A DNA stretch of 64,000 bases, taken from an uncultured Planctomycetaceae bacterium. GTDB taxonomy: Bacteria; Planctomycetota; Planctomycetia; Planctomycetales; Planctomycetaceae. Shown one piece after another: positions 43,688 to 63,800 of this stretch (the stretch's first letter is position 1; every line of letters begins with the position of its first letter). Under the pieces are notes generated by a model. That model did not search any database. It was not told where the DNA came from and was given only the letters and a program-made list of their open reading frames with translations. The stretch spans positions 160,001 to 224,000 of the forward strand of contig CAWFAK010000017.1 in assembly GCA_963813715.1 (NCBI GenBank), in the 5' to 3' direction. Position numbers and translations under genes: made by a program.

Positions 43688-46600
43688 ATGGTCAACATCT
43701 GGAAGCAATCTTTGAGGGGCAGACGGTTCAATTTCTTTTTGGGCCGTTCCAGGTCGCGGCCGCGTCGCCGACAAAGTCGGATCTATTCCGGAAGGACGTC
43801 GGCGATCGAGTGTCTGGAAAACCGCACGATGCTGGCGGCCACCATGTTGGCTTTCGCCCAGCAGCCCTCCGCGGGAATAGCCGGCCAAGGACTGGCCAAC
43901 ATCAAGATCGATGTCGAAGACTCAACCGGCACTGTCGTGAAGACGGACACGTCGACCGTCACGATTTCGGTCGCCAGCGGGCCCGGCGGATTCGCCGTCG
44001 GCAGCACGACGAGCGTGGCGGCCGTTAAAGGCGTGGCGACGTTCAACAACCTGATCCTCGATACGGCAGGCACCTACACGCTGACGGTGATCGACGGAAC
44101 GCTGACCGGCGCGACTTCCACGAACATCGTCGTCAGCGCCGCGGCCGCCAGCCAATTGGCGTTCCAGCAGGTCCCGACGACAGGAACCGCCGGCCAGGCG
44201 GTCGCCCCAGCAGTCACCGTCGCCGTTGAAGATGCGTTCGGCAACGTGGTGACGACGAATACGTCGAACGTCAAGATTGCGCTCGCCACCGGCCCCGGTG
44301 GTTTGACGACCGGCAGCACCACGCGAGTCGCGGCGGTCAACGGCGTGGCGACATTCAACAACCTGGTCCTCGATACGGCCGGCGCTTACACGCTCCAGGC
44401 GACCGACAATTCGTTGACGGCGTCCATTTCGAGCAACATCACGATCAATTCCGGAACGTCGACCCAACTCGCGTACTCAAAACTCGCCACGACGGGAACG
44501 GCCGGCCAAGCGCTTTCTCCCGCGATCCAGGTCGCCGTCGAGGACGCGTTTGGCAATGTCGTCACGACCGACGCGTCCACCGTCACGATCGCCGTTGCCA
44601 CTGGGCCGGGCGGATTCACCGGAAGCACGACCAGCGTGGCAGCCGTCGGCGGCGTGGCGACATTCAACAATCTGGTTCTCGATACAGCAGGGACCTACAC
44701 GCTGACCTCGACCGATGGCAGCCTGACGAATGTCACCTCGGGCAATATCGTGATCGCCGCCGCCTCGGCCAGTCAATTGGTCGATCAGCTGGTTCCCACG
44801 ACAGGGACCGCCGGGCAAGCCCTCAGTCCTTCCCTCAAGGTGGCCGTAGAAGATGCCTTCGGAAATTTGGTGACGACCGATACCTCCACGGTGACGATTG
44901 GTGTCGCAAGCGGGCCCGGCGGATTTACCGGAAGCACAACCAGCACGAGCGCCGTGAGCGGCATCGCCATTTTCAGCAATCTGTACTTGGATACGGCGGG
45001 GACCTACACACTGACGGCGACCGATGGCACGCTGAAAAGCGTGACCAGCGGAAGTATCGTCATTAGCGCCACAACCGCCAGCCAGCTGGCGTATCAACAA
45101 ATTGTCACCACGGGAACCGCGGGCCAGGCGCTCGCTCCGGCGGTCACCGTGGCGGTCGAAGATGCGTTCGGCAACGTGGTGATGACAAATACATCGACCG
45201 TCAAGATTGCGGTCGCTAGCGGCCCGGGCGGATTCATTGGCAGCACAACGAACGTCGCGGCAGTCAACGGCGTGGCCACGTTCAGCAACCTGGTCTTGGA
45301 TACGGCGGGGACATACACCCTTCACGCAACCGACGGTTCGCTGACTGCCGTCACCTCGGGCAACATCACGGTCGACGCGGCGGCTGCGACCCAATTGGTT
45401 TATGAGCAGGCGCCGACACCGGTCACGGCTGGCCAGGCGATCGCCCCTGCGGTGCAAGTGGCCGTGGAGGATGTGTTCGGCAATGTCGTCACGACCGACA
45501 CCTCGACAGTGATGATCGCGGTCGCCACCGGTCCCGGCGGGTTTATCGCGGGCAGCACGACCAACGTCGCGGCCGTCGGCGGAGTGGCCACCTTCAACAA
45601 TCTGATATTGGGCACAGCCGGGAACTACACCCTGACGGCGACCGACGGCGCGCTGACGAGCGTGACTTCGGCCAGATTCGCGGTGAGTGTGGCGCCTGCC
45701 AGTCAATTGGTCTATACGCGATCGGTCTCGACGGGGACGGCCGGGCAAGCCCTCAGTCCGTCCCTCACCGTGGCGGTGGAGGACGCCTTCGGCAACCTGA
45801 TCTCGACCGACACCTCGACCGTGACGATTGCCGTCGCGAGCGGGCCCGGCGGGTTCGACGTCGCGAGTACCACCAGCGCGGTCGCCGCGAGTGGTGTTGC
45901 CACGTTCAGCAATCTGCTCCTGGACACGTCCGGGACGTACACGCTGACGGTGACCGACGGAACGCTGACGAGCGCGACTTCGCCCAACATTCTCGTCAGC
46001 GCGGCAACGGCCAGCCAATTGCTGTATCAGCAGATCGTCAACACGGGCACGGCGGGCCAGGCCCTGGCTCCGGCGGTCACCGTCGTCGTGGAAGATGCGT
46101 TCGGTAACGTCGTCACCTCCGACACATCGAATATCAAGATCGCAGTCGCTAGCGGTCCGGACGGATTCACCGGCAGCACCACGAATGTCGCCGCCGTCAG
46201 CGGCGTGGCTACGTTCAACAACCTGGTCCTCGACACGGCTGGGAGCTACTCGCTCCAGGCCACGGACGGTTCGCTGACGGCGGCCATCTCGGGCAACATC
46301 ACGATCAATCCGGCCGCCTCGTCGCAATTGGTTTATGAGCAGGCGCCGACACCGGTCACGGTGGGTCAGACCATTGCCCCGGCGGTTCAAGTCGCCGTGG
46401 AGGACGCGTTCGGCAATGTGATCACGAGTGACACGTCCACCGTGACGATCGCAGTCGCGAGCGGGCCGGGCGGATTCACCGCGGGAAGCACGACCAGCGT
46501 CGCGGCCGTCGCCGGAGTGGCCACCTTCGATCCTCTGGTGTTGGACACGTCCGGGAACTACAGCCTGACCGCGACGGACGGCGCTCTGGCGAGCGTCACT

Positions 46601-49600
46601 TCCAAGAAGTTTGCGGTCAGCACGGCGCCGGCCAGCCAACTGGTCTATACCCGCGTGGCGACGACGGGGACGGCAGGCCAGATACTCCGCCCGACGTTGC
46701 GCGTGTCGGTGGAAGACGCGTTCGGCAACGTGGTGACGAGCGATACTTCGACAATCACAGTCGCGGTCGAGAGCGGGCCCGGCGACTTCGACCCGGCGAG
46801 CACGACCAGCGTCGCGACGACGAACGGAGTCGCCAAACTCACCAACCTCATCTTGGACACCGCCGGAACGTACACGCTCGTCGCCAGCAACGGGACGTTG
46901 CCGAGTAGCGTCTCCGGCGACATCGTGGTCAGTGCGGCCTCGGCAAGTCAACTCGTGCTCGAGCAGGCGCCGACGACGGGAATCGCCGGACAAGCGCTGA
47001 GTCCTTCCGTTACGGTCGAGGTGGAAGACGCCTTCGGCAACTTGGCGACTGCCAACACGTCGACGGTGAAGATCGCCGTCGCGAGCGGACCCGGCGGATT
47101 CGACACTGCATCCACGACGAGCGCAGCGGTCACGGGCGGCATCGCTACGTTCAGCAATCTCATCCTGGATACGCCTGGGCAGTACACATTTTCGCTGAGC
47201 GACGGCAAGCTGACGGGCGCGACCACCGGCACGATCAACATCGGTTCGGGTACTGCTTCCCAACTGGTTCTCCAGCAGTCGCCGACGAGCGGGACGGCCG
47301 GACAGGCGCTGAGTCCGTCGATCACGGTGACTGTCGAAGACGCCGTCGGCAATGTGCTCACGAGCGATTCGTCGACGGTGACCGTGTCCATCGCGACCGG
47401 GCCGGGCGGGTTGGACTCCGGCAGCACGACCAGCGTCACCGTAGTCAACGGGATCGCCACATTCAGCAATGTGATCCTGGATACCGCGGGCAGCTACACG
47501 CTGTCTCTGAGTGACGGCACCCTCACGGCGGCAACGACCGGCACGATCACCATCATTGCGGGATCGGCAACTCAGTTGGTGCTGCAGCAGTCGCCGACGA
47601 GCGGGACGGCCGGCCAGGCGCTGAGCCCGTCGGTCACGGTGGCTGTCGAGGACTCCTTCGGCAACGTGATCACAGGCGATACTTCGACTGTGACGGTTGC
47701 CGTTGCCACGGGACCGGCCGGCTTCGACGCCGGCAGCACGACGAGTATGGCGGCGGTGGGTGGCGTGGCGACGTTCAGCAACTTGCTATTTGACACTACG
47801 GGCAACTACACGCTCTCCGTCAGCGATGGCGGCTTGACTCGCGCGACGACGGGTTCGATCACGATCAGTCCCGCGACGGCCAGCCAATTGGTGCTAGAGC
47901 AGTCACCGACGACGGGGACCGCCGGACAGGCGCTGGCTCCCTCCCTCACGGTGACCGTCGAAGACTCCTTCGGGAACGTGGTCACAAGCGACGCCTCGAC
48001 TGTGACGGTCGCGGTTGCCACTGGACCTGCCGGTTTCGCGGTCGGCAGCACGACCAACGTGACGCCGGTGAGTGGCGTGGCAACCTTCAGCAATTTGGTG
48101 CTCGACACCGCGGGCAACTACACGCTCTCCGTCAGCGACGGCGGATTGACCGGCGTCACCACGGGTTCGATCACGATCAGCGCGGGGTTGGCGAGCCAAC
48201 TGGTGCTCCAGCAGTCGCCGACTAGCGGCACCGCGGGGCAGGCATCGGCGCCCTGCAGGTGGCGGTCGAAGACAGCTTCGGCAACGTAATCACCGGCGAC
48301 ACCTCGACCGTGACGGTCACGGTTGCCACGGGACCAGCCGGCTTCACGACCGGCAGCACCACCAGCGCCACGGTGGCAGGCGGCATCGCGACACTCAGCA
48401 ATTTGATCCTAGACACCACGGGCAACTACACGCTTTCTCTCAGTGACACGGGATTGACCGGCATTACGACGGGTTCGATCACGATCAGCCCGACCTCGGC
48501 GAGCCAATTAGTGCTCCAGCAGTCCCCGACGAGCGGCACGGCCGGTCAAGCACTTAATGCACTCAAGGTTGCGGTCGAAGACACCTTCGGCAACATGGTC
48601 ACAAGCGACACCTCCACTGTGATGATTTCCGTTGCCACGGGACCATCCGGATTTGCAGCCGGCAGCACCACCAGCGTAGCGGCAGTGAGCGGCGTGGCGA
48701 CGTTCAGCAATTTGCTCTTTGACACGACCGGCAATTACACGCTCTCTGTCAGCGACGGCGGCTTGACTGGGGCGACCACGGGTTCGATCACGATCAGCCC
48801 CGCAGTTGCCAGCAAACTGGTGGTCCAGCAGTCGCCGACTGGCGGCACGGCCGGGCAGGCGCTCAGTGCGCTTAAGATTGCTGTGGAGGACGCCTTCGGG
48901 AATGTGATGACGGGCGACAGCTCGACTGTTATGGTCGCCGTCGCCACCGGACCCGGCGGATTTGCCACCGGCAGCACAACCAGCGCGGCCGCCGTGAACG
49001 GCGTGGCCACCTTGAGCAATCTGACTTTGGACACGGCCGGAACATACACCCTGATAGTGACCGACGGGACGCTGACGAGCGCGACTTCCGGCAACGTTGT
49101 CGTCAGCCCGGCAACCGCGAGCCAACTGGCTTACCAACAGACGCCCACAACGGGCGCGACCGGGCAGCCGCTCAGTCCTGCAGTCGTGGTCGATATCGAA
49201 GACACTTTCGGCAACATCGTGACGAGCAACACGTCGAGCGTCACGATCGCCGTCGCGAGCGGGCCGGGCGGGTTCGCCACCGGGAGCACAACCAGCGTGT
49301 CGGCCGCGGGCGGTGTGGCCACGTTCAGCAACCTGATGCTGAATACCGCTGGCAACTACACGCTGAGCGTGAGCGACGGCACTCTCACCGGCGTGACGTC
49401 GACCAGCATTACGGTCGGAATGAGCCCGCCAGTGATCACCGCGCCCGCGACGGCCTTGGTGAACGAAAACGGATCGTTGGTCTTCTCGGCGAGCAACGGC
49501 AACGCTCTCTCCCTCGCCGATAGCGGCATCGGCCTGAATGCCGACTCGCTCACCATGTCGGTCTCGCAGGGAACGTTGACCCTGGGAACGACGAACGGGC

Positions 49601-51498
49601 TGGTCTTTTCGTCCGGCAGCAACGGCGCCGCCTCATTCACGGTCAAGGGCACCGTCACGAATATCGATGCAGCCTTGAGCAGCGTGACCTATCAACCGAA
49701 CGCCAATTACGCGGGCTCGGACTCGCTCGCAATCTCGGCCTCGGATCCGGGAGACAGCAAGTCGGCGTCGACCAGCGTCGCACTGACAGTCAGCCCCGGT
49801 GTGCCGGCGATCACCGCCCCGGTTTCGGCAGTGTTGAGCGAGAACGGTTCGCTCGTCTTCTCGTCGTCTAACGGCAATGCGATCAGTTTCGTCGATGCCG
49901 GCCCGGGCGCGGATTCGCTCACGCTCACGGTCACGCACGGGACGTTGACGCTGACGACAACCACCGGGTTGACGTTCACCGGCTCGAACGGATCGGCCTC
50001 GTTCACCGTGACCGGATCGGTCGCCAATCTCAATGCGGCGCTGAACGGACTGACCTATCAACCGGCGACGCGTTACTCCGGCTCCGATTCGCTGGCCGTT
50101 TCGCTGACCGATGCGGGTGACAGCCTCTCGGTCTCGAAGAGTGTGGCGCTGACGATCAACGGCCTCGCGCCTCCGTCGATCGGGGCTCCGGCAACGGCCT
50201 CTGTGGTCCTGAACGGATCGCTCGTCTTCTCGTCGGCCAATGGCAATCCGATCTCGGTCTCCGATACGGCCGCGGGCGGCAGCTCCGACTCGCTTACGCT
50301 CGGTGTCACGAACGGAACGCTGACGCTCTCCACGACGACGGGTTTGACCTTTACGGCCGGCACCAACGGCTCGTCTTCCTTCACGGTCAGCGGAACGATG
50401 ACGAATCTTAACGCGGCCCTGAGCGGTCTGACTTATCAGCCGACGGCCGGCTACTCGGGCGTCGCGTCGCTGACGATTTCGATCGCGGATCCGGGGGACA
50501 GCGAATCGGCGTCGAAAAGCGTGGCGCTCACCGTTAACGCCCCCACAATCACGGCTCCCTCTTCCGCCGCGGTCGGCATGAGTGGCACGCTGGTATTCTC
50601 CGCAGCGAACGGGAACGCCATCACGGTGGCAGATTCCGGCCCGGGTGCCAGCTCCGATTCGCTGACCCTGTCGGCCTCGTCCGGGACGCTCACGCTCTCC
50701 ACCACGGCCGGATTGACGATTACGGCGGGCGCAAACGGCTCGGCCTCGATCACTGTGACCGGATCCGTGGCCAGTCTTAATGCAGCCCTCAACGGACTGA
50801 CGTATCAGCCGACGTCCGCCTACAAAGGGTCCGATTCGCTGGTCATTTCGCTCAATGACTCAGTCGATCGCCTTTCAGCCTCCGCGAGCGTGGCCCTCAG
50901 CAGCCTGGCCGCAATCACGGCCCCCACGACGGCGGTGACCGCGATCACCAATCCGCTGGTCTTCGCGACTGGGAACAGGTTCGGGTACGCAATCAGCATT
51001 GCCGACGTCAGCGCGGGCAGCGCGGTCGAACCGCTCACACTGACGTCGACGGATGGAAAGCTGACTTTGGGATCCACGAGCGGCATCACCTTTACGTCGG
51101 GTGCCAACAATTCGGCCTCGATGACGATCAATGGCACGCTGGCCGCGCTGAATGCCGCCCTCAATGGCCTGATCTTCTCGCCGGCGCTGATCGGGAACGC
51201 AACGATTGTCCTCTCATATGCGGACGTTGGTGACGGCCAGATGGCTTCGGCGACGATTGACATCACGGTGACAAAGGGTGTCACGAAGCTGGGAACAGGA
51301 TCCCCGGTGAGTCCCCCTGCCCCTCTGCTTGCCGCGCCCGCGAGTTCGGTCACTGCTCCGACCGGGGCAGGTACCATTTCCACCGCGAATCCGACAGTTG
51401 CCAGCCAAACGACGGACAACAGCACGCCGCCGCCCGATGTCGAAACGAGTCCCGACATCGAAGTCACTTCGCCGGCCGGCCTCCAAACTCGGCTGTAA
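43688..51498 (+). CDS. Giant repetitive surface protein/adhesin (~2600 aa; frameshift near 48255)
   Basis: Arg-rich leader + IECLENRTML; 18 ~104-aa VEDAFGN Ig-like repeats; 5 ~120-aa ITAP..LNAAL.GLTYQP repeats; Pro/Thr tail. Confidence 0.9.
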
Positions 51499-51671
51499 GG
51501 AAGTGGGACCGGGTACACGTAGGTAGCGGGAATGTTCGAACGGGGCGTTCGTGCCTCGCACGCGGGCGCCAGCGCTTGCAACGGCGTGCCGACGGACCTG
51601 CGGCACACGCATCGAAGCCCTCAGCAGGTCCCGCCTAGTCCACACCGACGGAAGCGTCAGAGGTAAGCCCG

Positions 51672-52328
51672 GTGACACAGTCCGTGAACGACCTCGTCAA
51701 TGCATTCCTGCTGGTCTATGCGGGATTATTCCCAATCGTCAATCCGATCGGCGCCGCGCCGATTTTCTTCGGCCTGACCCGAGATTGCACCGCCAACGAA
51801 CGTCGCGCTCTTGCCTTGCAAGTCGCGCTCAACAGTTTCGTGCTGCTCCTCGGCTCGCTGTTCGTCGGCTCGTATGTGCTCGAGTTCTTTGGTCTGACCT
51901 TACCGATCGTGCGTGTGGCTGGTGGGCTCGTCGTGGCCGCGGCCGGGTGGAATGTTCTCCAAGCGGGAGATAGCGGGGACGACGAGCGGACCGGGCATAA
52001 ACCTGTCGTACCGACGGACGCATTTTATCCTCTCACAATGCCGATGACCGTGGGACCGGGGTCGATCGCGGTGGCCATCACGCTCGGCAGCCAGCGACCC
52101 CGGGCGCCCCTTGCTGATGTGACCTTACTCGCGGGCGCGGCCGTCGCCGGACTGATCGCAATCGCCGCCACCATTTACGTGTGCTACCGGTTTGCCGGCG
52201 GGGCCATCGGGCGACTGGGCAAGCACGGGACAAATGTGGTGGTGCGGCTGTCGGCCTTCATCCTCTTGTGCATCGGCATCGAAATTATTTGGAGCGGTTG
52301 CAGTGCCCTCGCGCATGTTGCTCGCTAG
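51672..52328 (+). CDS. MarC family membrane protein
   Basis: LFPIVNPIG, VAGGL, YPLTMPMTVGPGSI, RLSAFILLCIGI. Confidence 0.92.
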   Translation: MTQSVNDLVNAFLLVYAGLFPIVNPIGAAPIFFGLTRDCTANERRALALQVALNSFVLLLGSLFVGSYVLEFFGLTLPIVRVAGGLVVAAAGWNVLQAGDSGDDERTGHKPVVPTDAFYPLTMPMTVGPGSIAVAITLGSQRPRAPLADVTLLAGAAVAGLIAIAATIYVCYRFAGGAIGRLGKHGTNVVVRLSAFILLCIGIEIIWSGCSALAHVAR

Positions 52329-52447
52329 GACCAGTGCCGCATTGACCGGCACTGGGGCCACATCTATCACTCGGACGCGAATTACCGGCATCTAGGAATG
52401 CCCTCGCTTCTCGCCGCAACGACCCTGATTTCGACGCAGTCATCCAT

Positions 52448-52496
52448 TGAAATTACAAGTTTCATTACTTGACTTTTGTAACAATGTCGCTAAGAT
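52448..52496 (+). promoter_or_regulatory. Sigma70-like promoter with inverted repeats (candidate TetR operator)
   Basis: TTGACT-16bp-TAAGAT; TTACAA (52453) / TTGTAA (52476) and TGAAA/TTTCA inverted pairs in an AT-rich patch. Confidence 0.6.
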
Positions 52497-52529
52497 TGCC
52501 CCCTGTCCACCTGGAAAAGGAGCAATCCA

Positions 52530-53417
52530 ATGAATGACGCAACTCTCGGCGGCCGGTTCACGTTCCCTGGGACGTCCCTGACGGTTCAACGGATCGGCTA
52601 TGGCGCGATGCAACTGGCTGGGCCCGGTGTGTGGGGGCCGCCCAAGGACCCCGACGGTGCCGTCGCCGTGCTTCGCGAGGCAGTCGCCGCCGGCGTGAAC
52701 CACATCGACACGTCCGACTTCTACGGCCCGCACGTGACCAACCAAATCATTCGGCAGGCGCTGCACCCGTACCCGTCCCAGTTGGTGATCGTCACCAAGC
52801 TCGGCTGCCGTCGTCCGCCGGACAAGTCGTGGGAGCCGGCCGTCTCACCCCAGGACCTGACCGAGGGCGTCCATGATAACCTTCGCAATCTGGGTTTGGA
52901 CGTGCTCGACATCGTCAACTACCGCGCGCTGGGGACGATTCACGGCCCCAAGGAGGGGCCTATCGCCGAGCAAGTGACGGTGCTCGCCGACCTGCGGCGC
53001 AAGGGGCTGATTCGCCACGTTGGTCTCAGCAACGTCACGGCCGCCCAGATCGCCGAGGCACAGGCGATCACCGACATCGTTTGCGTGCAGAACAACTACA
53101 ATCTGGCCAACCGCCACGACGATGCTCTGATCGACGACCTGGCCACGCAGGGCATCCCCTACGTGCCCTTCTTTCCGCTCGGCGGATTCACGCCGCTGCA
53201 GTCGTCCACGCTGTCAGACGTCGCGGGCCGGCTCGGCGCCACTCCGATGCAGATCGCGCTGGCGTGGCTGCTCCACCGCTCGCCTAACATCCTGCTGATT
53301 CCTGGCACGTCGTCGGTCGCCCACCTGCGCGAGAACCTGGCCGCAGGGCAGTTGACGCTCTCACCTCAAGTTTTGTCGGAGTTGGACGGAATCGCCTCGA
53401 CCGCGGTTGGGCACTAA
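52530..53417 (+). CDS. Aldo/keto reductase
   Basis: IGYGAMQL, HIDTSDFYG, GLSNV, VQNNYN, LLIPGTSS.AHLREN. Confidence 0.95.
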   Translation: MNDATLGGRFTFPGTSLTVQRIGYGAMQLAGPGVWGPPKDPDGAVAVLREAVAAGVNHIDTSDFYGPHVTNQIIRQALHPYPSQLVIVTKLGCRRPPDKSWEPAVSPQDLTEGVHDNLRNLGLDVLDIVNYRALGTIHGPKEGPIAEQVTVLADLRRKGLIRHVGLSNVTAAQIAEAQAITDIVCVQNNYNLANRHDDALIDDLATQGIPYVPFFPLGGFTPLQSSTLSDVAGRLGATPMQIALAWLLHRSPNILLIPGTSSVAHLRENLAAGQLTLSPQVLSELDGIASTAVGH

Positions 53418-53432
53418 TCAGGAGAGCAAAAC

Positions 53433-54323
53433 ATGCGAGTTTTCCTCACGGGCGCTACAGGGTTTATCGGCTCTGCCATCGTTGGGGAACTCATCGGCGC
53501 GGGCCATCAGGTTCTGGGTCTTGCTCGCTCAGAGGCGGCCGCGAAGCAGCTGACTGCCGCTGGTGCCGAGCCGCATCGAGGTGATCTTCAAGACCTGGAC
53601 AGCCTGCGCAGCGGGGCCACTGCCTCGGATGGCGTCATTCACACAGGCTTCATCCACGACTTCTCGAGATTCAAGGAAGTCTGTGAGGTCGATGAGCGCG
53701 CCATTGAGGCCCTGGGCTCCGCGCTCGTTGGCTCTCACCGCCCGTTGATCGTCACTTCTGGGACCGCGCTGGTTTCGCCGGGTCGCCTTGCGACAGAAGA
53801 CATTCCGCCCGCGCCCAAAACCAGCGTTCCCCGTGCTTCCGAAGCCGCAGCAGCTGCGGTGGCGGCGCGCGGCGTGCGCGTGGCGGTGGTACGCCTTTCT
53901 CCTTCGGTTCATGGCGACGGTGATCACGGCTTCGTCCCAATTCTGATCAACATGGCCCGCGAAAAGGGCGTTTCCGCCTATGTCGGCGACGGATCAAATC
54001 GCTGGAACGCGGTGCACCGGCTCGATGCTGCCCGTCTTTTCAGGCTGGCTCTCGAGAAAGGGGCCGCAGGAGCGCGGTATCACGGAGTCGCCGAAGAGGG
54101 CGTGCCCTTCCGTGAGATCGCGGGCGTGATCGGCCGACGCTTGAAGCTGCCCGTCGTCGCCAAGTCACTCGAGGAGGCAGCCGGCCACTTTGGCTGGTTC
54201 GCGCATTTCGCCGCAATCGACTGCCCAGCCTCGAGTCAGCGAACTCGGGAATTGCTGGGGTGGGAGCCGACGAGGCCCGGACTGATTGCCGACCTCGACC
54301 GGCTCAAATATTTCGAGAATTGA
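53433..54323 (+). CDS. NAD-dependent epimerase/atypical SDR
   Basis: [29 protein letters not shown]. Confidence 0.93.
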
Positions 54324-54334
54324 AGGAGAACAAT

Positions 54335-55057
54335 ATGCCGAAGGTGGCACTCGTCACGGGAGCGAATAAGGGCATCGGGTTTGAAGTCGCGCGACGGCTT
54401 GCCGGGAGCGGACTGACCGTCCTGCTGGGAGCACGCAACGCGGAGTTGGGACACGAAGCGGCGGCGAAGATGAAGCGCGAAAACCTCGATGCGCGGTTCG
54501 TGGAGCTCGATCTTCTCCGCCAAGAGACGATCGAAGCCGCATCCATCCTGATCGAGAAAGACTTCCAGCGTCTCGATATCCTAATCAACAATGCGGGGAT
54601 TGCTGACCCCTCGGACGGGTTGCCCAGCACCGCGAGCTTCGCCGCAGTGCGGCGCACGTTGGAGACCAATTTTCTGGGAACGTTGGCTGTCACGCAGGTC
54701 CTGCTGCCTCTTTTGAAAAAGGCCGAGGCCGGACGCATCGTGAACGTCTCCAGCAGCCTGGGTTCGTTGACGCATCAGGGCAATCCGGCATGGAGTTCTG
54801 CTTCGACCAAGTTCATCGGTTATAGCGCGTCAAAAGCAGCTCTCAACATGCTGACGGTGCACTTGGCCTATGAGCTTCGGGACACGGCCATCAAAGTGAA
54901 TTCGGCCAATCCCGGCTATACGGCCACGGACCTGAATCAGCATCGCGGACACCAAACGGTTGCGGAGGGCGCCGAAGAAATCCTTCGGTTGGCGCTGCTG
55001 CCGGTCGACGGGCCCACCGGCGGCTTCTTTGAAAAATCCGGCGCGGAGCCCTGGTGA
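54335..55057 (+). CDS. Classical SDR oxidoreductase (carbonyl reductase-like)
   Basis: TGANKGIG, NNAG, YSASK, NPGYTATDLN. Confidence 0.93.
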   Translation: MPKVALVTGANKGIGFEVARRLAGSGLTVLLGARNAELGHEAAAKMKRENLDARFVELDLLRQETIEAASILIEKDFQRLDILINNAGIADPSDGLPSTASFAAVRRTLETNFLGTLAVTQVLLPLLKKAEAGRIVNVSSSLGSLTHQGNPAWSSASTKFIGYSASKAALNMLTVHLAYELRDTAIKVNSANPGYTATDLNQHRGHQTVAEGAEEILRLALLPVDGPTGGFFEKSGAEPW

Positions 55058-55077
55058 TAGCATGTCTAGAGGTCTAA

Positions 55078-55706
55078 ATGTCCCCCGCTGACACCCCGCT
55101 GACCCTCGATCGGATCGTCTCTGCTGCGGAGGATGTCCTCCGCCGGTTCGGCCCGGCCAAGGCGACCGTGGTCGACGTCGCCCGGGCATCGGCGTGAGCC
55201 ACGCGGCCGTCTATCGGCACGTGGCGACCAAGGCCGCGCTGCGAGACCTCGTCGTCGGCCGGTGGGCGGAGGCGACCATGCCCCCGCTCCGGGCCATCGC
55301 CGCCTCGAAGAGCCCTGCCCCGCAGCGATTGCGACAGCTTCTCGACGCCCTGATCGCCGTCAAACGCCGCCTCGTCGCTAACGACCCGGAGCTATTCGCC
55401 GCCTATCGGACGCTGGCCGCCGACGCCAAGTCCGTGGTCGACGCCCACGTCGACGAGTTGATCGCGCTGACGGCGATGGTGATCCGCTCCGGCGTGGAGG
55501 AAGGCACGTTCCACACCGTCGACCCGCTGGCCGCCGGCCGGGCAGTGCTGTTCGCTACGTCCCGGTTCCACCACCCGGCCCACGCCACCGAATGGGGCGA
55601 CCCGACCATCGATGCGGCGTACAACGACGTGTGGCAACTGCTGATGGACGGCCTGTGCGTTGCGAAGACGCGTGCGCGCTCGTCTCAGGTGCGGCGACCG
55701 CGTTGA
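55078..55706 (+). CDS. TetR-family regulator (frameshift near 55190)
   Basis: MSPADTPLTLDRIVSAAEDVLRRFGPAKATVVDVARA then GVSHAAVYRH HTH. Confidence 0.9.
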
Positions 55707-56076
55707 GATTATTCCCATTGTTCGCCCCCCCAGATGTTGCCCGCCGCGTCGATGTACACGTCGATCAGCATCTGAATGCCGCTCACCCTTGAATACTCAA
55801 TGGCGTCGGCGTTCAAGGAGTAGGTACAGGATCAGGCTGTCGTATGGCCGCTGAGGCATCGCGTTCGCGAATCGAACCGTTCCTGTCGTCGCGGCGAATT
55901 AAGCGGTCTCGCCGGCTGGTCTTTAACGACGAGCAACGCAAAGCACAGCAGCCGGGCCCGTCGCTCAAGTCTCCCTCTCGCACTCAGGGTCCAAATATTG
56001 CTCTCGTCGTTCCTCCGTTCCGGAACTGATGGACGGGTTTGGGTCTTCGTCTTATTCGCGAGGTGGATCTGCCGCA

Positions 56077-56191
56077 GAGTCGACAATCCTCCCCCAAGGC
56101 AAACGCCGCCTCCCCGAAACCGCCGACCGCGTCGTGAAGCTCTACACGCCTGGGGCAAACCCGAAAAGCCGCCGAATGGCGGCAGAAGATC
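56077..56191 (+). pseudogene. Orphan remnant of a kinase-TPR protein C-terminus
   Basis: With two 1-nt gaps reads ESTILPQGKRRLPETADRVVKLYT-AWGKPEK-AAEWRQKI. Confidence 0.6.
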
Positions 56192-56411
56192 AGGGCTGTT
56201 CCGAAGCCGCGGTGATGGGAGGACCAGAGTGGGCGTTGAGCCGAGTCAGAGAGATTAGGAATGCGTCCTCTTTCTTGGCATCGTAAGACGAGGCTTCCTG
56301 CACATTCGTTCGTCCGACCGACGTGCAAGATCGCCTTGGCTTTTCCCCCTCAACCACCTTAGGAGCATTGGCTAAAACGCGCATTTAGGGATACGATGGA
56401 GGGCTTGGAGA

Positions 56412-56882
56412 GTGGCGACTCAACGATTTCAGGAGGTCACCTTGGGCGGCGCTGAGACAAAGCCTCGCGACTATTTCCGACGGGACCAGAAGGGTGGAAT
56501 CTCTCCTCCCAATCTGGCGAACGATTGCACGTTCGCGGAGCATATTGTGCATGCTCGCGGCAAGCGAACCCAATATACGAGCGTTTCTTTGGATTTGAGC
56601 AAGATTCGCGATTTCGGGGATACCAACTATAAGCTGGAGAGAGAGTCGGCCATTAGCGACGGGCATGGCCTCGTCGAACATGAAACCTTGATCGCAGAAT
56701 TGCGAAGGGTCGCCAGAGAGGAAACGAAGGAAGCTCGGCTGAGAGCTGTTCAGGCCTTAAGATATGCCACCAGCCGAAGGGAAGGCCTTGTCAGTTGGTC
56801 GTTCAAGACCACAGGAGTAGCCCAAAAGGACCTCATCAGCTGGGCGGAGAAGATAATCCAAAAGTACTTTGCCCGGATATAG
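56412..56882 (+). CDS. Putative stand-alone ADP-ribosyltransferase-fold toxin (156 aa)
   Basis: YFRRD..GISP..AEHIVH..TQYTSVS..RYA..RREGLV; GGAG RBS; low GC. Confidence 0.6.
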   Translation: MATQRFQEVTLGGAETKPRDYFRRDQKGGISPPNLANDCTFAEHIVHARGKRTQYTSVSLDLSKIRDFGDTNYKLERESAISDGHGLVEHETLIAELRRVAREETKEARLRAVQALRYATSRREGLVSWSFKTTGVAQKDLISWAEKIIQKYFARI

Positions 56883-56886
56883 ACCG

Positions 56887-57681
56887 ATGGACGAACTATT
56901 CAGTTGCCGTAATTGTATTCACAACTGCGGCCAAAGCCTCAACACCGGAAATGGCGCGGGCTATTGCCTAAAGCACAGTTCCGTCATTTCCCATCCCGAC
57001 AGGACTACGTGCAAGTATCTTCACAGGAAGGATCTCCCTCATTTTGTAGTTGATGAAGGAATCCGGGAGCATGCAGCGGAATACGCACTTTTTCCTCGAC
57101 TCGTGTCTCTCGACACGAAAGAGCCGATCGAGCGTATCGTTTATAGTGAAAAGTATTATTGGGAGAAAAGGGAGTTCGATCCGCTTACCCATGCTCTCGC
57201 ACAGTATTTTAAAGCAGAACGCAGATGGGTTGTGATCCAGGCTTTTACTGCAGGAGCTGATGGCCAACGGTCGCTTGCGCATGCCTCGCTTGTACGTCAT
57301 TACATGGATCACTGTGGCACTTGGACCAGTTCTTACAGGCTGGTCCTAGGATTGCTCGAAGAAATCGATGAAACTCCGGCTTTCACTCGCAGGGCTCTTT
57401 TCGTTTCCGATGGCTCCTCGGCCCAAGAGACAGCCGAGAACGCGCTGTGGGATGTAGTCTTTGTCAGGCTATCGGCCATCCAGGAATACGGGTGGCACGC
57501 TGGCTTGGAGACTCTCATGTGGGTCAGTGACGCTGTGAATGGTTCGCTCGTCGAGTTGAATTGGACCAGACTGCAAGGCGAACTGAGTAGCCTCCGTGAC
57601 AAGTGGATTGGTGAAGTCATAAGTCACGCCAAAGCACATGATGCATTCTTCCCCAAGCCGGAAATCGAAGAAGAGTACTGA
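56887..57681 (+). CDS. Hypothetical protein with N-terminal Cys cluster (264 aa)
   Basis: CRNCIHNC..GYCLKH..TCKY; starts 4 bp after the upstream stop; low GC. Confidence 0.8.
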   Translation: MDELFSCRNCIHNCGQSLNTGNGAGYCLKHSSVISHPDRTTCKYLHRKDLPHFVVDEGIREHAAEYALFPRLVSLDTKEPIERIVYSEKYYWEKREFDPLTHALAQYFKAERRWVVIQAFTAGADGQRSLAHASLVRHYMDHCGTWTSSYRLVLGLLEEIDETPAFTRRALFVSDGSSAQETAENALWDVVFVRLSAIQEYGWHAGLETLMWVSDAVNGSLVELNWTRLQGELSSLRDKWIGEVISHAKAHDAFFPKPEIEEEY

Positions 57682-57989
57682 AGCCAGGCGTGCTGTCCGC
57701 GGGTCGCGCCAGCAAGAGGTTGCTCAATCGATCCAGCTCGCGGGCACACCGACCGGGCGGCGATACTCGTCGTGCCCGCCGTCCAGGGCCAGTCGGTCGT
57801 GCGAGTCAGAAGTCTCGTCGCGACGGGATTCAACCCCGCAAGAGTGCCGCCGCTGGTAGGGCTAATTGGCGCGGGGCTCATTGCACGCATCGTTGCCAAG
57901 GCGGCGGGTTCTCGACAACCCTCTTGCCGCTTCGCGGCCGAGACGACGAGTAGTCCCGGCCAGCCCGCTGCGTTTTCTGTCCTCTTAGA

Positions 57990-58321
57990 TCGATCCCGTC
58001 CCGAACTTCGAGTCCCGTCCCGCCGCGCGAGGGTTGCCCAGAGGCGAAAGCCCGCGTGGTGGGACCACTTTTGGCACTCCCCCTTATATCAATGCACGGA
58101 GTCCCGTCCCGCCGGGACCACTTTTCACGGTCCCGCCGGGACCACTTGTCCCACCGTTCCCGGCAGGTGGCTCGGTGTCCGCGCCACCTGTCCCGGGCAC
58201 CGGGGCACCAATGCCTCGTCGCCGGCTGCCGGGGATCTTTTCCCCCTCTTAGTGAAAACGGATCCCCATCACCGCCGGGGATCCAATTTTCGTCCCCGCC
58301 GGGACTCGATTCCCACGGGAC
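57990..58321. repeat. GTCCC/GGGAC-rich non-coding repeat island
   Basis: TCCCGTCCCG x3; GGGACCACTT x3 (58061, 58114, 58138); GTCCCG-C-CGGGAC palindromes. Confidence 0.8.
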
Positions 58322-58717
58322 AGATTTCCGCCCCTCCTCGCCGCCGTGCCAGACAGCCTCCGCACGAAATAAAAGGTCCGACAATCGGCAACGCGATTCA
58401 CCGGTGCGCACGGCGACGGTCCCTCTCCGCGCAGCACGACGGCTATCCCCAGCCTGCCGCAAAAACCGCCCGGTGCCAACCCCAAGTTTCTACGACCGTG
58501 TAAACAACTTTGAAACTTTTTCCGGCCGGCGAGGTCCGGCTTGTCGACTCTTCGGAGATGGAGAGACGACCATCCTACGTGCTCAAACTCGTCCTCCCGC
58601 CTTTTTCCCCCAACGTGAATTGCTAACGCGCTGGACGGTCAGCCGGTTCAGAACGCCAGGCGCTGTCGAACAAGCGCTGCGGACCGAAGACAAGCGCGGC
58701 TCACCCGGCATCGACGG

Positions 58718-60836: not shown

Positions 60837-63800
60837 CTAAGGTTTCGCAACCTGTCGCGCGACCGGGGTCGTGATGATTCGGCATTGCGGAAGCGATTTG
60901 TTTAGCTCCGCAACACCGGCGGCCGTGAAATGGGTGTCGCTGAGGTCGAGTTCTTTGAGTCGTGTGAGCTGCGAGAGATACTTGGCGCCTTCGTCGGAGA
61001 CATGGCTCCTGGCCAAAGACAGTCGCTCCAGTTTCTTCAGTCCGTCGAGTTCCACCAGAAACAGCTCCGCGAGCGCCGGGCAGCCGAGCCGGAGTTCGGT
61101 GAGTTCCGTGAAATCCTGTAAGTGTGTGAGGCCCGGTCCGCGGATGGCGTCGCCATCCAGCACGAGTCTCCGCAGCGCGGTCAAGCTTTGCAGCTGCGGG
61201 ACGCTGGCATCCGTGATCCGCGTGTCCGCAAGGTTCAGCTCCTGTAACGTGACCAGCGGTTTGAGGCGCTCAACGTCGGCGTCCTCGATCGCGGTGCCAG
61301 ACAAGTCGATGGCAACCAGTGCACCGAGCTTCGAATTCACAATCGCAGACAACAATTCCTGGAGGGCCGGCCGCGACCCGGCCAAGCGGGCCCGGGTGAC
61401 CTGAAACGACTTAACGGGAAGTTCGCTGATCGCCTTGACGGAGCGCCTGGTCCCGTTCTCCTCAAGGCGAACATCGACGCCGCCACCAGCCTCCAAAACG
61501 GCGCGGGCCAAAGCATAGTTCGGCTCGGACCACGTGATGCGCAGGTTCGGTAGAGCGGCCTTGAGAATCTCGATTCCCCGAGCCGAGATGTGCGTGTCGC
61601 GGACGTCAATGGACCGCAAACCGCGGAGATGCAGGATTCGCCGTAGCGCTGCATCGCTCACGCGAGGCAGTCTCTGCAAGCTGAGTATTTGGAGGTTCCT
61701 CAAGCCCTGCAGCTCGGCAAGTCCGGCGTCCGTGACACGCGTCTCGCTGACGTCGAGTGAATACAACTGGGTCAGGCCCTTCAGGTACACGAGCCCCGCG
61801 TCGGTCACATGCGTTTGGTCCAGAAAGAGTTGTTGCAGATTCTTCAGCGTTTCGACGTTGATCAGCCCGGAATCGGTCACAGGCAGATGGCTCAAGCTCA
61901 GGTTTCGCAGCTTTTTGAGACTGCGGAGGTGCTCCAGGCCTGCGTCGGTCACATGCGTTTCGCGCAACCAGAGGCTATCCAGCTGCGGAAGCCCCTCCAG
62001 TTGCGCCAGCCCTGCATCCGTGATGTTCGTCCGAGTCAAGGAGAGCTCATGCAGGCTTTTCATCTGCCGGAGGTGCGCAAGCCCGGCATCAGTCACGGGA
62101 GTACCATAACCCAACCACAAGCTCTCGAGTTTCGTCAGACGCTGCAGCTGCTTCAACCCGGCATCAGAAACGCGCGTCGCTTCCAGGATTAGACTCCTGA
62201 GCTCGGGCAAACCCTCGAGGTAGGCAAGCCCTGCATCCGTGACCGCCGTGTTCTTGAGACTGAGAGTTCTTAGTGCCTTTAGGCCCGCAACGTGCGCCAG
62301 GCCGGCATCTGTCACGCGCGTGCGGTCAAGTATCAGGTTCGTCAGTCTCGTCAGACCGCGAAGGTGGGCGAGCCCCGAGTCGGTCGTCTCGGTACGGCTG
62401 AGCACCAGCTCTTCGAGATTTGTGAGGCCACCGAGTTGCTTCAGTTCGGGTCCGCGAACGACGGTGCCCTCCAATGCTAGACTACGGAGGCGGGTCAATC
62501 CCTTCAGGCGCAGCCAGTCGGCGTCGCCGATCACGGTGCCGGACAGATTTAGGGAAATTAAGCCATCCACTCCTGGACCGGAGAGAGCAGCAAATGCGGC
62601 CTCGAGCGGTGGCCGGCGCCGGCCAAGCTTGCGGCGGTGATCCGGAACGGCTCCGAGGGGAGCTCGGCGATCGCCTTGACCGAACGGTCCGACTTGGTTC
62701 CCTGCAGACGAATTTCGACCGTCCCACCGGCCGAGAGCACCGCTTTAGCGGCGGTGGTGTTCGGGTCGGACCAAGTGATGCGTACTGAATGCGGAAGAGC
62801 CGCCTTGAGGGCTGCGAATCCTTTTGTGGAAACGCGGGAGTCGGTCAGGTCGAGTTCCGCCAGATTTCCCAGATTCAGAATTCTTGGCACGATGGCGTCG
62901 TCGATCTGCGTCGCCCCCTTCAGGCTGAGAACGTGGAGGTTCTTCAGACCTTGAAGCTCGACTAGTCCGGCTTCTGTGACGCGCGTCTCGCCGAGGTAGA
63001 GGCGTCCCAAGCGCGTCAGTCCTTTCAGGTGTGCCAGCCCTGCGTCGGTCACGGGCAGCGAGGTCAGGTCCAGGATTCCCAACTTCGTGAGGCCGCTCAG
63101 ATGCACCATCCCCGCGTCGGTCACGCGGGTTCCCCGTAGCCACAGCCGATCAAGCTGCGGCAGACCTTGAAGTTGTTTGAGTCCGGCATCCGTGACGCGT
63201 GTCCATTCCAGCATGAGGACGTGCAGCTTCTTCAAAACTGGAAGAAGTTTCAGCCCCGCGTCGGTCACCTGAGTGCCGTTCAGCCGCAGCGACTCGAGTT
63301 GCGTCAGACCTTGAAGGTGCTTCAACCCGGCATCGGTCACCAATGTGTTCGTAAGATCGAGCGTGGTTAATGCCGTCAGACGCTGCAGGTGACTCAGGCC
63401 GGCGTCGGAGACTCGCGTTCCCTCGAGCGCAAGGCTCTTGAGCCTGGTTAGACCCTCGAGGTGCTTAAGCCCCGCGTCGGTCACACCCGTGTTCTTGAGA
63501 GTTAGAGTTTTCAAGGCAGTGAGGCCCGAAATTTGCGCCAGTCCCACGTCTGTCAAATGCGCCCGGTCGAACGCGAGGCCGGACAAATCCAGAGAGACCA
63601 AGCCGTCCACTCCCGGATCGGTCAGCGCAGCAAAGATCGGCTCGAGCGGGGGCCGTGCGCTTGCCAGGCTGACGGAGGTGATCCGGAACTGCGCGGAAGG
63701 CAATTCGCCGATCGTCTTGATCGAGCGGTCCGCCGCGGCTCCCTGCAGGCGAATCTCGACCGTACCGCCGGCCGAGAGCACCGCTTTGGCCGCAGTGGTG

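Follow-up and report, generated by a model that had tools for sequence, protein, structure and literature searches.

The locus described here raises the question of what two small adjoining genes, which match no annotated family, do for the bacteria that carry them. They lie in a 64 000-nt stretch of contig CAWFAK010000017.1 from an uncultured Planctomycetaceae bacterium, referred to below as the window. The first-pass annotation proposed a toxin–antitoxin or anti-phage pair, in which a stand-alone ADP-ribosyltransferase (ART) is controlled by a cysteine-rich partner. The two ORFs are on the same strand, 4 bp apart as that annotation described, and the low G+C content that it noted is evident, at 0.522 for the pair compared with 0.626 and 0.619 in the 2-kb flanks and 0.632 in the genome. 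Neither gene has a match in Pfam, PADLOC or NCBIfam. Homologues number 258 for gene 1 and 471 for gene 2, and amongst the 120 matches listed for each, all those that are named are 'hypothetical'. The pair is a real, unannotated family. Contigs of run X1, possibly the source sample, match five pieces of it with no differences, including the gene junction (56819–56976); those of the RNA runs X13 and X14, both of which may lack the organism, include none over the pair.

The ORF of gene 1 reaches a GTG codon at 56412, which had been taken as the start of the pair, but the likelier start is the TTG codon at 56442, because of the Shine–Dalgarno sequence upstream of it (Table 1), the 146-aa length of the database protein and the 141–150 aa of most homologues. 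A TTG start is found at the matching position in related Planctomycete loci, for example L002, L003 and L058. A promoter scanner made no calls upstream of the pair; the weak candidate in Table 1 falls under its threshold, and similar promoter-like stretches are also present upstream of gene 1 in L001 and L002.

Table 1. Features of the gene pair and of the block that contains it (positions in the window; residues of gene 1 are numbered from the TTG codon at 56442)
Feature	Position	Strand	Remarks
Possible weak sigma-70 promoter	56368..56397	+	TTGGCT, 18 nt, TACGAT; 8/12 matches; inferred only
Shine–Dalgarno sequence AGGAGG	56431..56436	+	5 nt upstream of TTG start
Gene 1, predicted toxin, R-S-E-class ADP-ribosyltransferase fold, stand-alone	56442..56882	+	146 aa, pI 9.6
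Gene 1 codons	R13 56478, H34 56541, S47 56580, S49 56586, E114 56781	+	
Helical hairpin, gene 1 residues 80–111	56679..56774	+	DSSP; main predicted gene 2 contact
Gene 2, predicted antitoxin	56887..57681	+	264 aa, pI 5.6
Gene 2 N-terminal module			C7-x2-C10-x16-C27-x2-H30-x11-C42, then helical body with invariant C143
5.45-kb block absent at the site in relative G002	52441..57891		Oxidoreductase-like genes, frameshifted TetR-like gene, debris, pair (other gene labels by reading, not database matches)

In the 94%-identical relative G002, the match to the window extends over 51601–52440 (95% identity) and resumes at 57892 (91–94%), so that the whole of the block in Table 1 is missing. Gene 2 was found in none of 60 relatives. 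Because of these absences, and of a G+C content of 52% against 63%, the pair is regarded as horizontally acquired, as originally suggested. The flanking gene debris and repeat island that had been described around it both exist, but the repeat (about 57990–58550) belongs to a dispersed intergenic family, which has 52 matches in this genome and numerous others across the genus; its presence in G002, where the pair is missing, shows that the module does not include it. In two RNA runs, contigs accumulate on this repeat, possibly from other organisms or from DNA. The debris on the left (56094–56236) is the remnant of a C-terminal coding tail, presumably of the TPR/kinase type, that is found in other genomes of the genus, and in three loci of G009 and G003 a similar tail lies 20–40 bp after the 58225–58540 repeat. 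An 18-bp inverted repeat (56072/58538) was considered as the ends of an element and dropped, as G002 contains its right part in spite of having no pair, and its left part is coding remnant. Elsewhere in the window, a TetR-like gene (by reading, 55079–55706) has a frame apparently broken near 55190, where contigs of related organisms carry an extra base at 55187–55188. A very large, repetitive Ig-like surface protein (43688–51498) is divided into two ORFs of 1533 and 1079 aa overlapping at about 48260–48289, which indicates a frameshift or an assembly error, and a leucine-rich-repeat protein on the minus strand (60837–63781) is split into consecutive ORFs of 577 and 407 aa.

The pair is rare, mobile and scattered across unrelated environmental bacteria. 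Its holders, which include members of the Planctomycetota, Thermodesulfobacteriota, Chlorobiota, Acidobacteriota, Pseudomonadota and Myxococcota, are interleaved on the tree. A syntenic Planctomycete clade, mostly Isosphaeraceae, carries the pair at one site, and vertical inheritance is therefore also possible. In a record titled Akkermansia muciniphila (L007, CAMCXS010000128.1), gene 2 groups with the Planctomycete copies, through either transfer or mis-binning. A distant subfamily, with 24% identity (hhalign 95.9% and 96.8%) and unchanged gene order, includes a pair on the Ca. Methylospira plasmid NZ_CP135728 that adjoins HicAB, ParDE and a recombinase. It occurs in two of 401 gammaproteobacterial genomes: in G395, gene 1 is stopped and gene 2 intact, while the second genome holds both subfamilies. 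The distant-subfamily profile revealed no new holders amongst 400 genomes of Pseudomonadota and 400 of the window's phylum, and this subfamily too has no matches in PADLOC or NCBIfam and none by blastn in E. coli genomes.

Gene 1 is predicted to have an ART fold. In the AF2 model (pLDDT 91.6, pTM 0.85), strands at residues 12–16, 45–49, 61–65, 76–78, 114–118 and 143–145 accompany the helical hairpin. When this model was compared with 48 161 chains using VIA-align, TreX ranked first (Z 6.9, rmsd 3.0, 94 residues aligned), followed by PltA (Z 6.7), pertussis S1 (6.7) and Scabin (6.2). All of rows 1–20 are ART-fold proteins, if the 9ld3, AvrPphF and Arr rows belong to the families that we take them to represent, and the first clearly unrelated row is at rank 22 (Z 3.0). 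A best Z of 6.9 is in the middling range of VIA-align's own scale, and the Foldseek matches are weak (best E 0.04) but mostly to ART toxins; Atlas structural neighbours carry Pertussis_S1/Scabin/NarE at 0.94–0.96. As the consistent ranks, the Atlas neighbours and the conserved residues agree, the ART fold, which the first-pass annotation had proposed for checking by AlphaFold and Foldseek, is supported as a prediction despite these scores.

The motifs in which an R, His, S-x-S, Glu signature had first been recognized (YFRRD, AEHIVH, TQYTSVS and RREGLV) are all found in gene 1, and the signature is conserved. Amongst 55 intact copies, D15, S47 and E114 are kept in all 55, R13 and H34 in 54 and S49 in 52, and each of these residues is also kept in the distant subfamily (hhalign 95.9%). 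R13, S47 and E114 lie on strands 12–16, 45–49 and 114–118 of the model, matching the strand placement of R15, S54 and E102 in TreX as given in the available text of PMC11606950. This suggests that R13, S47–S49 and E114, with H34, carry the NAD+ chemistry. The description of gene 1 as free of any Rhs or secretion domain is also upheld, with no fused form amongst the 82 matches from a profile search of 1.84 billion representatives; the longest real match has 273 aa, and one 934-aa protein matches over 38 residues only (E 5e-6). Nor does its N terminus resemble a signal peptide, as had been stated. There were no Pfam matches for 20 divergent members, and sequence searches of the PDB with gene 1 and gene 2 returned nothing.

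What gene 1 modifies can be suggested tentatively. In the ARTs covered by the accessible parts of PMC11281641 and PMC11606950, a target-recognition (ARTT) loop stands just before the strand of the catalytic Glu, and a Q/E-x-E motif is reported to specify Arg, Asn or guanine acceptors (PMC11281641). This motif is absent in gene 1: position −2 from the catalytic Glu is R in 54 of 55 copies, variable in divergent members and W in the distant subfamily. Cationic surfaces mark the nucleic-acid ARTs discussed in the available text of PMC12340436, and the median pI of gene 1 is 9.6. A nucleic-acid target is ranked first, at a little under even odds, because the enzyme is basic and lacks Q/E-x-E; the distant subfamily does not conserve the basic loop behind this guess, R39/K41/R42. 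A protein target, ranked second, is a somewhat weaker candidate, and NAD+ hydrolysis, ranked third, is unlikely.

For gene 2, the model is of comparable quality (pLDDT 93, pTM 0.90) and the fold searches gave no match, with best Foldseek E-values of 1.1 against the PDB and 0.22 against BFVD, and generic helical bundles only in VIA-align (best Z 5.7). A lack of matches is not proof that the fold is new, and the fold comparison hardly covered the Cys module. The 50-aa N terminus, searched by itself against PHROGs, gave a best E of 0.038. Longer fused forms were not found amongst 8000 candidates, which is weak evidence. Both subfamilies have C7, C10, C27, C42 and C143 without exception. The C-x2-C-x3-C-x12-C-x14-C spacing initially described is right for this copy, but no more than 85 of 119 homologues have its C14, which is missing in the distant subfamily. 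All 119 close homologues have H30, which some divergent copies replace with W. C7, C10, C27 and C42 may form a Zn or Fe–S centre that would stabilize gene 2. A HiPIP-like [4Fe–4S] module, pursued on account of what we assumed to be a likeness in Cys spacing, was not supported; hhalign gave a probability of 3.8% against 11 HiPIP sequences with only the CxxC aligned, and the global mode was in the wrong register. Gene 2 has a median pI of 5.5 and is the better conserved gene, with a mean column identity of 66% compared with 54% for gene 1.

Gene 2 is predicted to bind gene 1 directly. The model of the complex scores 0.89, whereas the best of three controls scores 0.00; of 157 solved complexes, 116 attain the mark for this score, as do two of 215 mismatched pairs. 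At least 77% of contacts are common between runs, and the pLDDT of the partners is at least 87. The modelled interface comprises residues 35–41, S47, 53–59 and the hairpin (88–112) of gene 1, and the D49–H62 segment and helices 185–224 of gene 2, and its columns are better conserved than those elsewhere, at 0.82 against 0.71 and 0.79 against 0.71. In this arrangement, gene 2 would cover the acceptor/target-recognition side of gene 1. Many invariant residues of gene 2 lie outside the interface, and this excess is more than a plain inhibitor needs.

The distribution of losses provides further evidence. In total, 132 loci were collected, 55 from GTDB with gene 2 and 77 from metagenomes with gene 1; 35 cut by contig ends were dropped, and the 97 in which both gene slots are visible formed 79 dereplicated groups. 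Wherever both genes are in view they lie within about 15 bp of each other, and the check on co-occurrence that had been proposed revealed strict pairing and gene order. Both genes are intact in 53 groups; gene 1 is broken in 16 and absent in five, both genes are broken in four and only gene 2 in one. Gene 1 is thus broken or deleted beside an intact gene 2 in 21 of the 79 groups, and the reverse applies in one. Two groups are mixed, as gene 1 is intact in some of their near-identical alleles and not in others: L065 versus L124–128/L132, counted as intact, and L040 versus L039, counted as broken. As each seed can show loss of the other gene only, the fair comparison is between the 21 of 51 gene-2-seeded groups that lack an intact gene 1 and the one of 34 gene-1-seeded groups that lacks an intact gene 2 (Fisher P 3.7e-5, with kin not independent). 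The 21 lesions comprise four in-frame stops, five large deletions, five complete losses, one frameshift plus stop and six frameshifts only; removal of the last, possible sequencing errors, leaves 15 versus 0. In the sole reverse case (L044), gene 1 is intact and gene 2 frameshifted, probably through an assembly error. An 885-aa frame spanning both genes in L047 was rejected as an artefact of frameshifts in that assembly. On the gene 2 tree (a quick tree of 77 rows), loss of gene 1 occurs in scattered places, and the deletions retain a −10-like box and the gene 2 ATG. This asymmetry is the pattern expected of a toxin and its antitoxin.

Both genes are under purifying selection, with values of 0.26 and 0.08 between the window and L002, 0.10 and 0.09 between L031 and L033, and 0.23–0.43 for Sorangium pairs. 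Where dS is measurable, the dN/dS of gene 2 is 0.07–0.09 in L030, L035, L028–L032 and L049–L064, with no relaxation, and in the L028–L032 and L049–L064 pairs an intact gene 1 is missing on both sides. In five loci from which gene 1 has gone, gene 2 keeps 41–43 of 43 conserved columns. Orphan copies are therefore without sign of decay, though the losses are undated. According to the available text of PMC7192599, antitoxins are often found as orphans and have been proposed to act as anti-addiction modules.

The explanation favoured here, with a probability of about 0.68, is that the pair is a conserved, horizontally moving operon, likely a type II-like toxin–antitoxin module, in which gene 2 keeps a stand-alone R-S-E ART inactive by binding to it. 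The ADP-ribose that gene 1 takes from NAD+ would be attached to an essential target within the producing cell. Gene 2, perhaps stabilized by its candidate Zn or Fe–S centre, would bind gene 1 and cover the target-recognition face. If the centre or the supply of gene 2 were to fail, through segregation, stress or infection, the toxin would be freed, and cells could escape by breaking gene 1 while keeping gene 2, which probably then serves as protection against incoming copies. The toxin-first order and the lack of a recognizable DNA-binding domain (gene 2 has no family match to one) are atypical for a type II system. The intracellular ART toxin and antitoxin that the first-pass annotation envisaged are supported by the computed fold, the conserved residues, the pairing, the predicted binding and the loss asymmetry; a defence-island context is not supported.

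That the pair was selected for abortive infection, with a phage product or the stress of infection freeing the ART as in DarTG or CmdTAC, is possible but rather doubtful; the mechanism would be compatible with a toxin–antitoxin module, and only the purpose differs. Both characterized ART toxin–antitoxin systems defend against phage, according to the available text of PMC11618068 and PMC9503650, and the pair is rare, patchy and often lost. By a raw count, a clear defence gene lies within three genes of it in eight of 68 loci (L023, L025, L030, L046, L069, L112, L115 and L128), a figure based on 296 of 317 flanking ORFs, with generic kinase, ABC-ATPase, protease, TPR/WD, desaturase, phospholipase and HTH matches left out. 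The other 60 loci have none, so that neither enrichment in defence islands, a check that had been proposed, nor an anti-phage function is supported; the lack of PADLOC matches also argues against the latter. Heuristic gene calling shows that the genes around the pair mostly have housekeeping roles (nuoC/nuoD, CO-dehydrogenase subunits, aroA, gltD, uvrA, mfd, dnaX, truB and recR), and the pair is sometimes within operons, as with nuoC/nuoD in L042 and the CO-dehydrogenase genes in L037. Relatives of the pair were not found in viral contigs or phage records. An attC-like site downstream of the pair at one locus (L102) could favour a defence role, but such hits, at 1/99 and 1/112, are close to the shuffled rate. 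The attC-like hairpins downstream of gene 2 in L102 and upstream of gene 1 in L089 suggest integron cassettes in a few lineages, while not being above chance overall.

There are no shared mobile-element ends and, beyond close kin, no shared upstream element. In L071 (351–5351), a 3.7-kb unit including the pair is tandemly duplicated. In Chlorobi and others (L007, L023, L039, L040, L041 and L094), the pair adjoins, or is flanked on both sides by, genes with formylglycine-generating-enzyme-like (PvdO/EgtB-type) domains. No third gene is conserved across the 55 loci and the window; in the Myxococcota/delta-proteobacterial loci L051 (10879–11307), L053 (10843–11346) and L052, a small gene without a Pfam match overlaps the gene 2 stop, and is possibly a third component specific to that clade.

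It is less probable that gene 2 is more than a plug, namely a new-fold enzyme or sensor, such as an ADP-ribose eraser or an Fe–S redox switch, that is useful without gene 1, an explanation that overlaps with the toxin–antitoxin one. The preservation and dN/dS of the orphan copies would fit this, as would the non-interface residues C143, W146, S148, R127, R137, R194 and Y107, which are invariant in both subfamilies, but these may be structural core, the losses of gene 1 may be recent, and orphan antitoxins are widespread even where they have no second function (PMC7192599, in the text available). In addition, comparison with macrodomain, ARH and NADAR families revealed no similarity or profile match, and they do not figure in the fold lists, which does not exclude them. 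In its boldest and similarly unlikely form, gene 2 would be a new metal-cluster fold that both plugs the enzyme and reverses or senses its action, as an Fe–S/Zn switch or an ADP-ribose eraser unlike macrodomain, ARH or NADAR; it would gate a stand-alone cholera-class ART whose target is nucleic acid of the same cell, and selection would keep it after toxin deletion as protection against foreign ADP-ribosylation.

There is only a slight probability that the two genes are a non-toxic regulatory pair, in which gene 1 reversibly modifies gene 2 or a dispensable target in a DraT/DraG-like or SirTM-like manner and the working component is gene 2. Of the two genes, gene 2 has been conserved and retained better, and its position in the complex model, against the acceptor side of gene 1, is one that a substrate could occupy. 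However, none of the 34 gene-1-seeded groups has an intact gene 1 and no gene 2 (in L044, gene 2 is frameshifted), which suggests that gene 1 is harmful when free; moreover, the plasmid copy lies among toxin–antitoxin modules and there are no common pathway genes nearby. An orphan effector–immunity cassette of a secreted Rhs/T6SS toxin system, of which orphan immunity genes are typical, is largely excluded, as the toxin-then-immunity order and the best fold match, the Rhs tip TreX, are outweighed by the lack of fused forms amongst the 82 matches, of a signal-peptide-like N terminus in gene 1 and of any Rhs, VgrG or PAAR family amongst the 118 + 55 immediate neighbours scanned.

Considered as a toxin–antitoxin module, the pair can be compared with several known systems. 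With the R-S-E ART toxins (TreX/TriX, TreThr, pertussis S1/PltA, Scabin; Tox-ART-RSE), gene 1 shares the ART fold, in which strands 1, 2 and 5 carry R, S-x-S and E, respectively, and, as predicted for gene 2, a downstream gene product that blocks the active-site face. It also has an RxD motif, extended to RxDxR in about half of homologues, and the available text of PMC3482391 gives an RxD-type motif as that of the family. Unlike these toxins, gene 1 is stand-alone, is not secreted, lacks Q/E-x-E and has a helical hairpin where they carry the ARTT loop; its partner is a Cys-bearing protein of 264 aa without a fold match, and neither gene matches these toxins at the sequence level. DarTG is likewise an intracellular two-gene ART module with the toxin gene first, in which the antitoxin binds the toxin, as is predicted here, and orphan antitoxins occur. 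DarT, however, is ARTD-like (Z 3.2–3.6 against gene 1), DarG is a macrodomain or NADAR hydrolase, and there is no profile match to gene 1 or gene 2. In CmdTAC, too, an intracellular ART is held by a protein antitoxin, as the model predicts for this pair, but the pair has no SecB-like chaperone, the SecB family being absent amongst the neighbours scanned, and no conserved third gene, and gene 2 is larger and predicted to be fully folded. RES-Xre, ParST and MbcTA are type II systems in which direct binding blocks a toxin of the ART superfamily, again as predicted here. In RES toxins, S and E are replaced by Y and N (PMC9503650, available text), whereas gene 1 keeps both, gene 2 is not of the HTH/Xre type, and Z is only 2.4–2.7. 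The pair resembles DarTG and CmdTAC in logic and TreX/TriX in fold and inhibition, and does not belong, or cannot be assigned, to any of them.

The pair is undescribed in the available text of the literature found, including PMC13617354, PMC7758455, PMC12945103, bioRxiv 10.64898/2026.10.19.760177 and 10.1101/2025.01.08.631726, although supplements, such as defence-system catalogues, could list it. As far as the available parts of these sources extend, DarTG, CmdTAC and RES-Xre/ParST/MbcTA use other ART types or other antitoxins and, if the proposed explanation is true, the pair adds a stand-alone toxin of the cholera/pertussis class. A helical hairpin lies where the specificity loop normally stands, and the target of ADP-ribosylation may therefore be new. 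The predicted antitoxin has no structural precedent and bears a candidate metal centre, and both proteins are small and could be tested in E. coli. The repeated deletion of the toxin with preservation of the promoter, beside an undecayed antitoxin, would provide a clean natural case for why orphan antitoxins persist.
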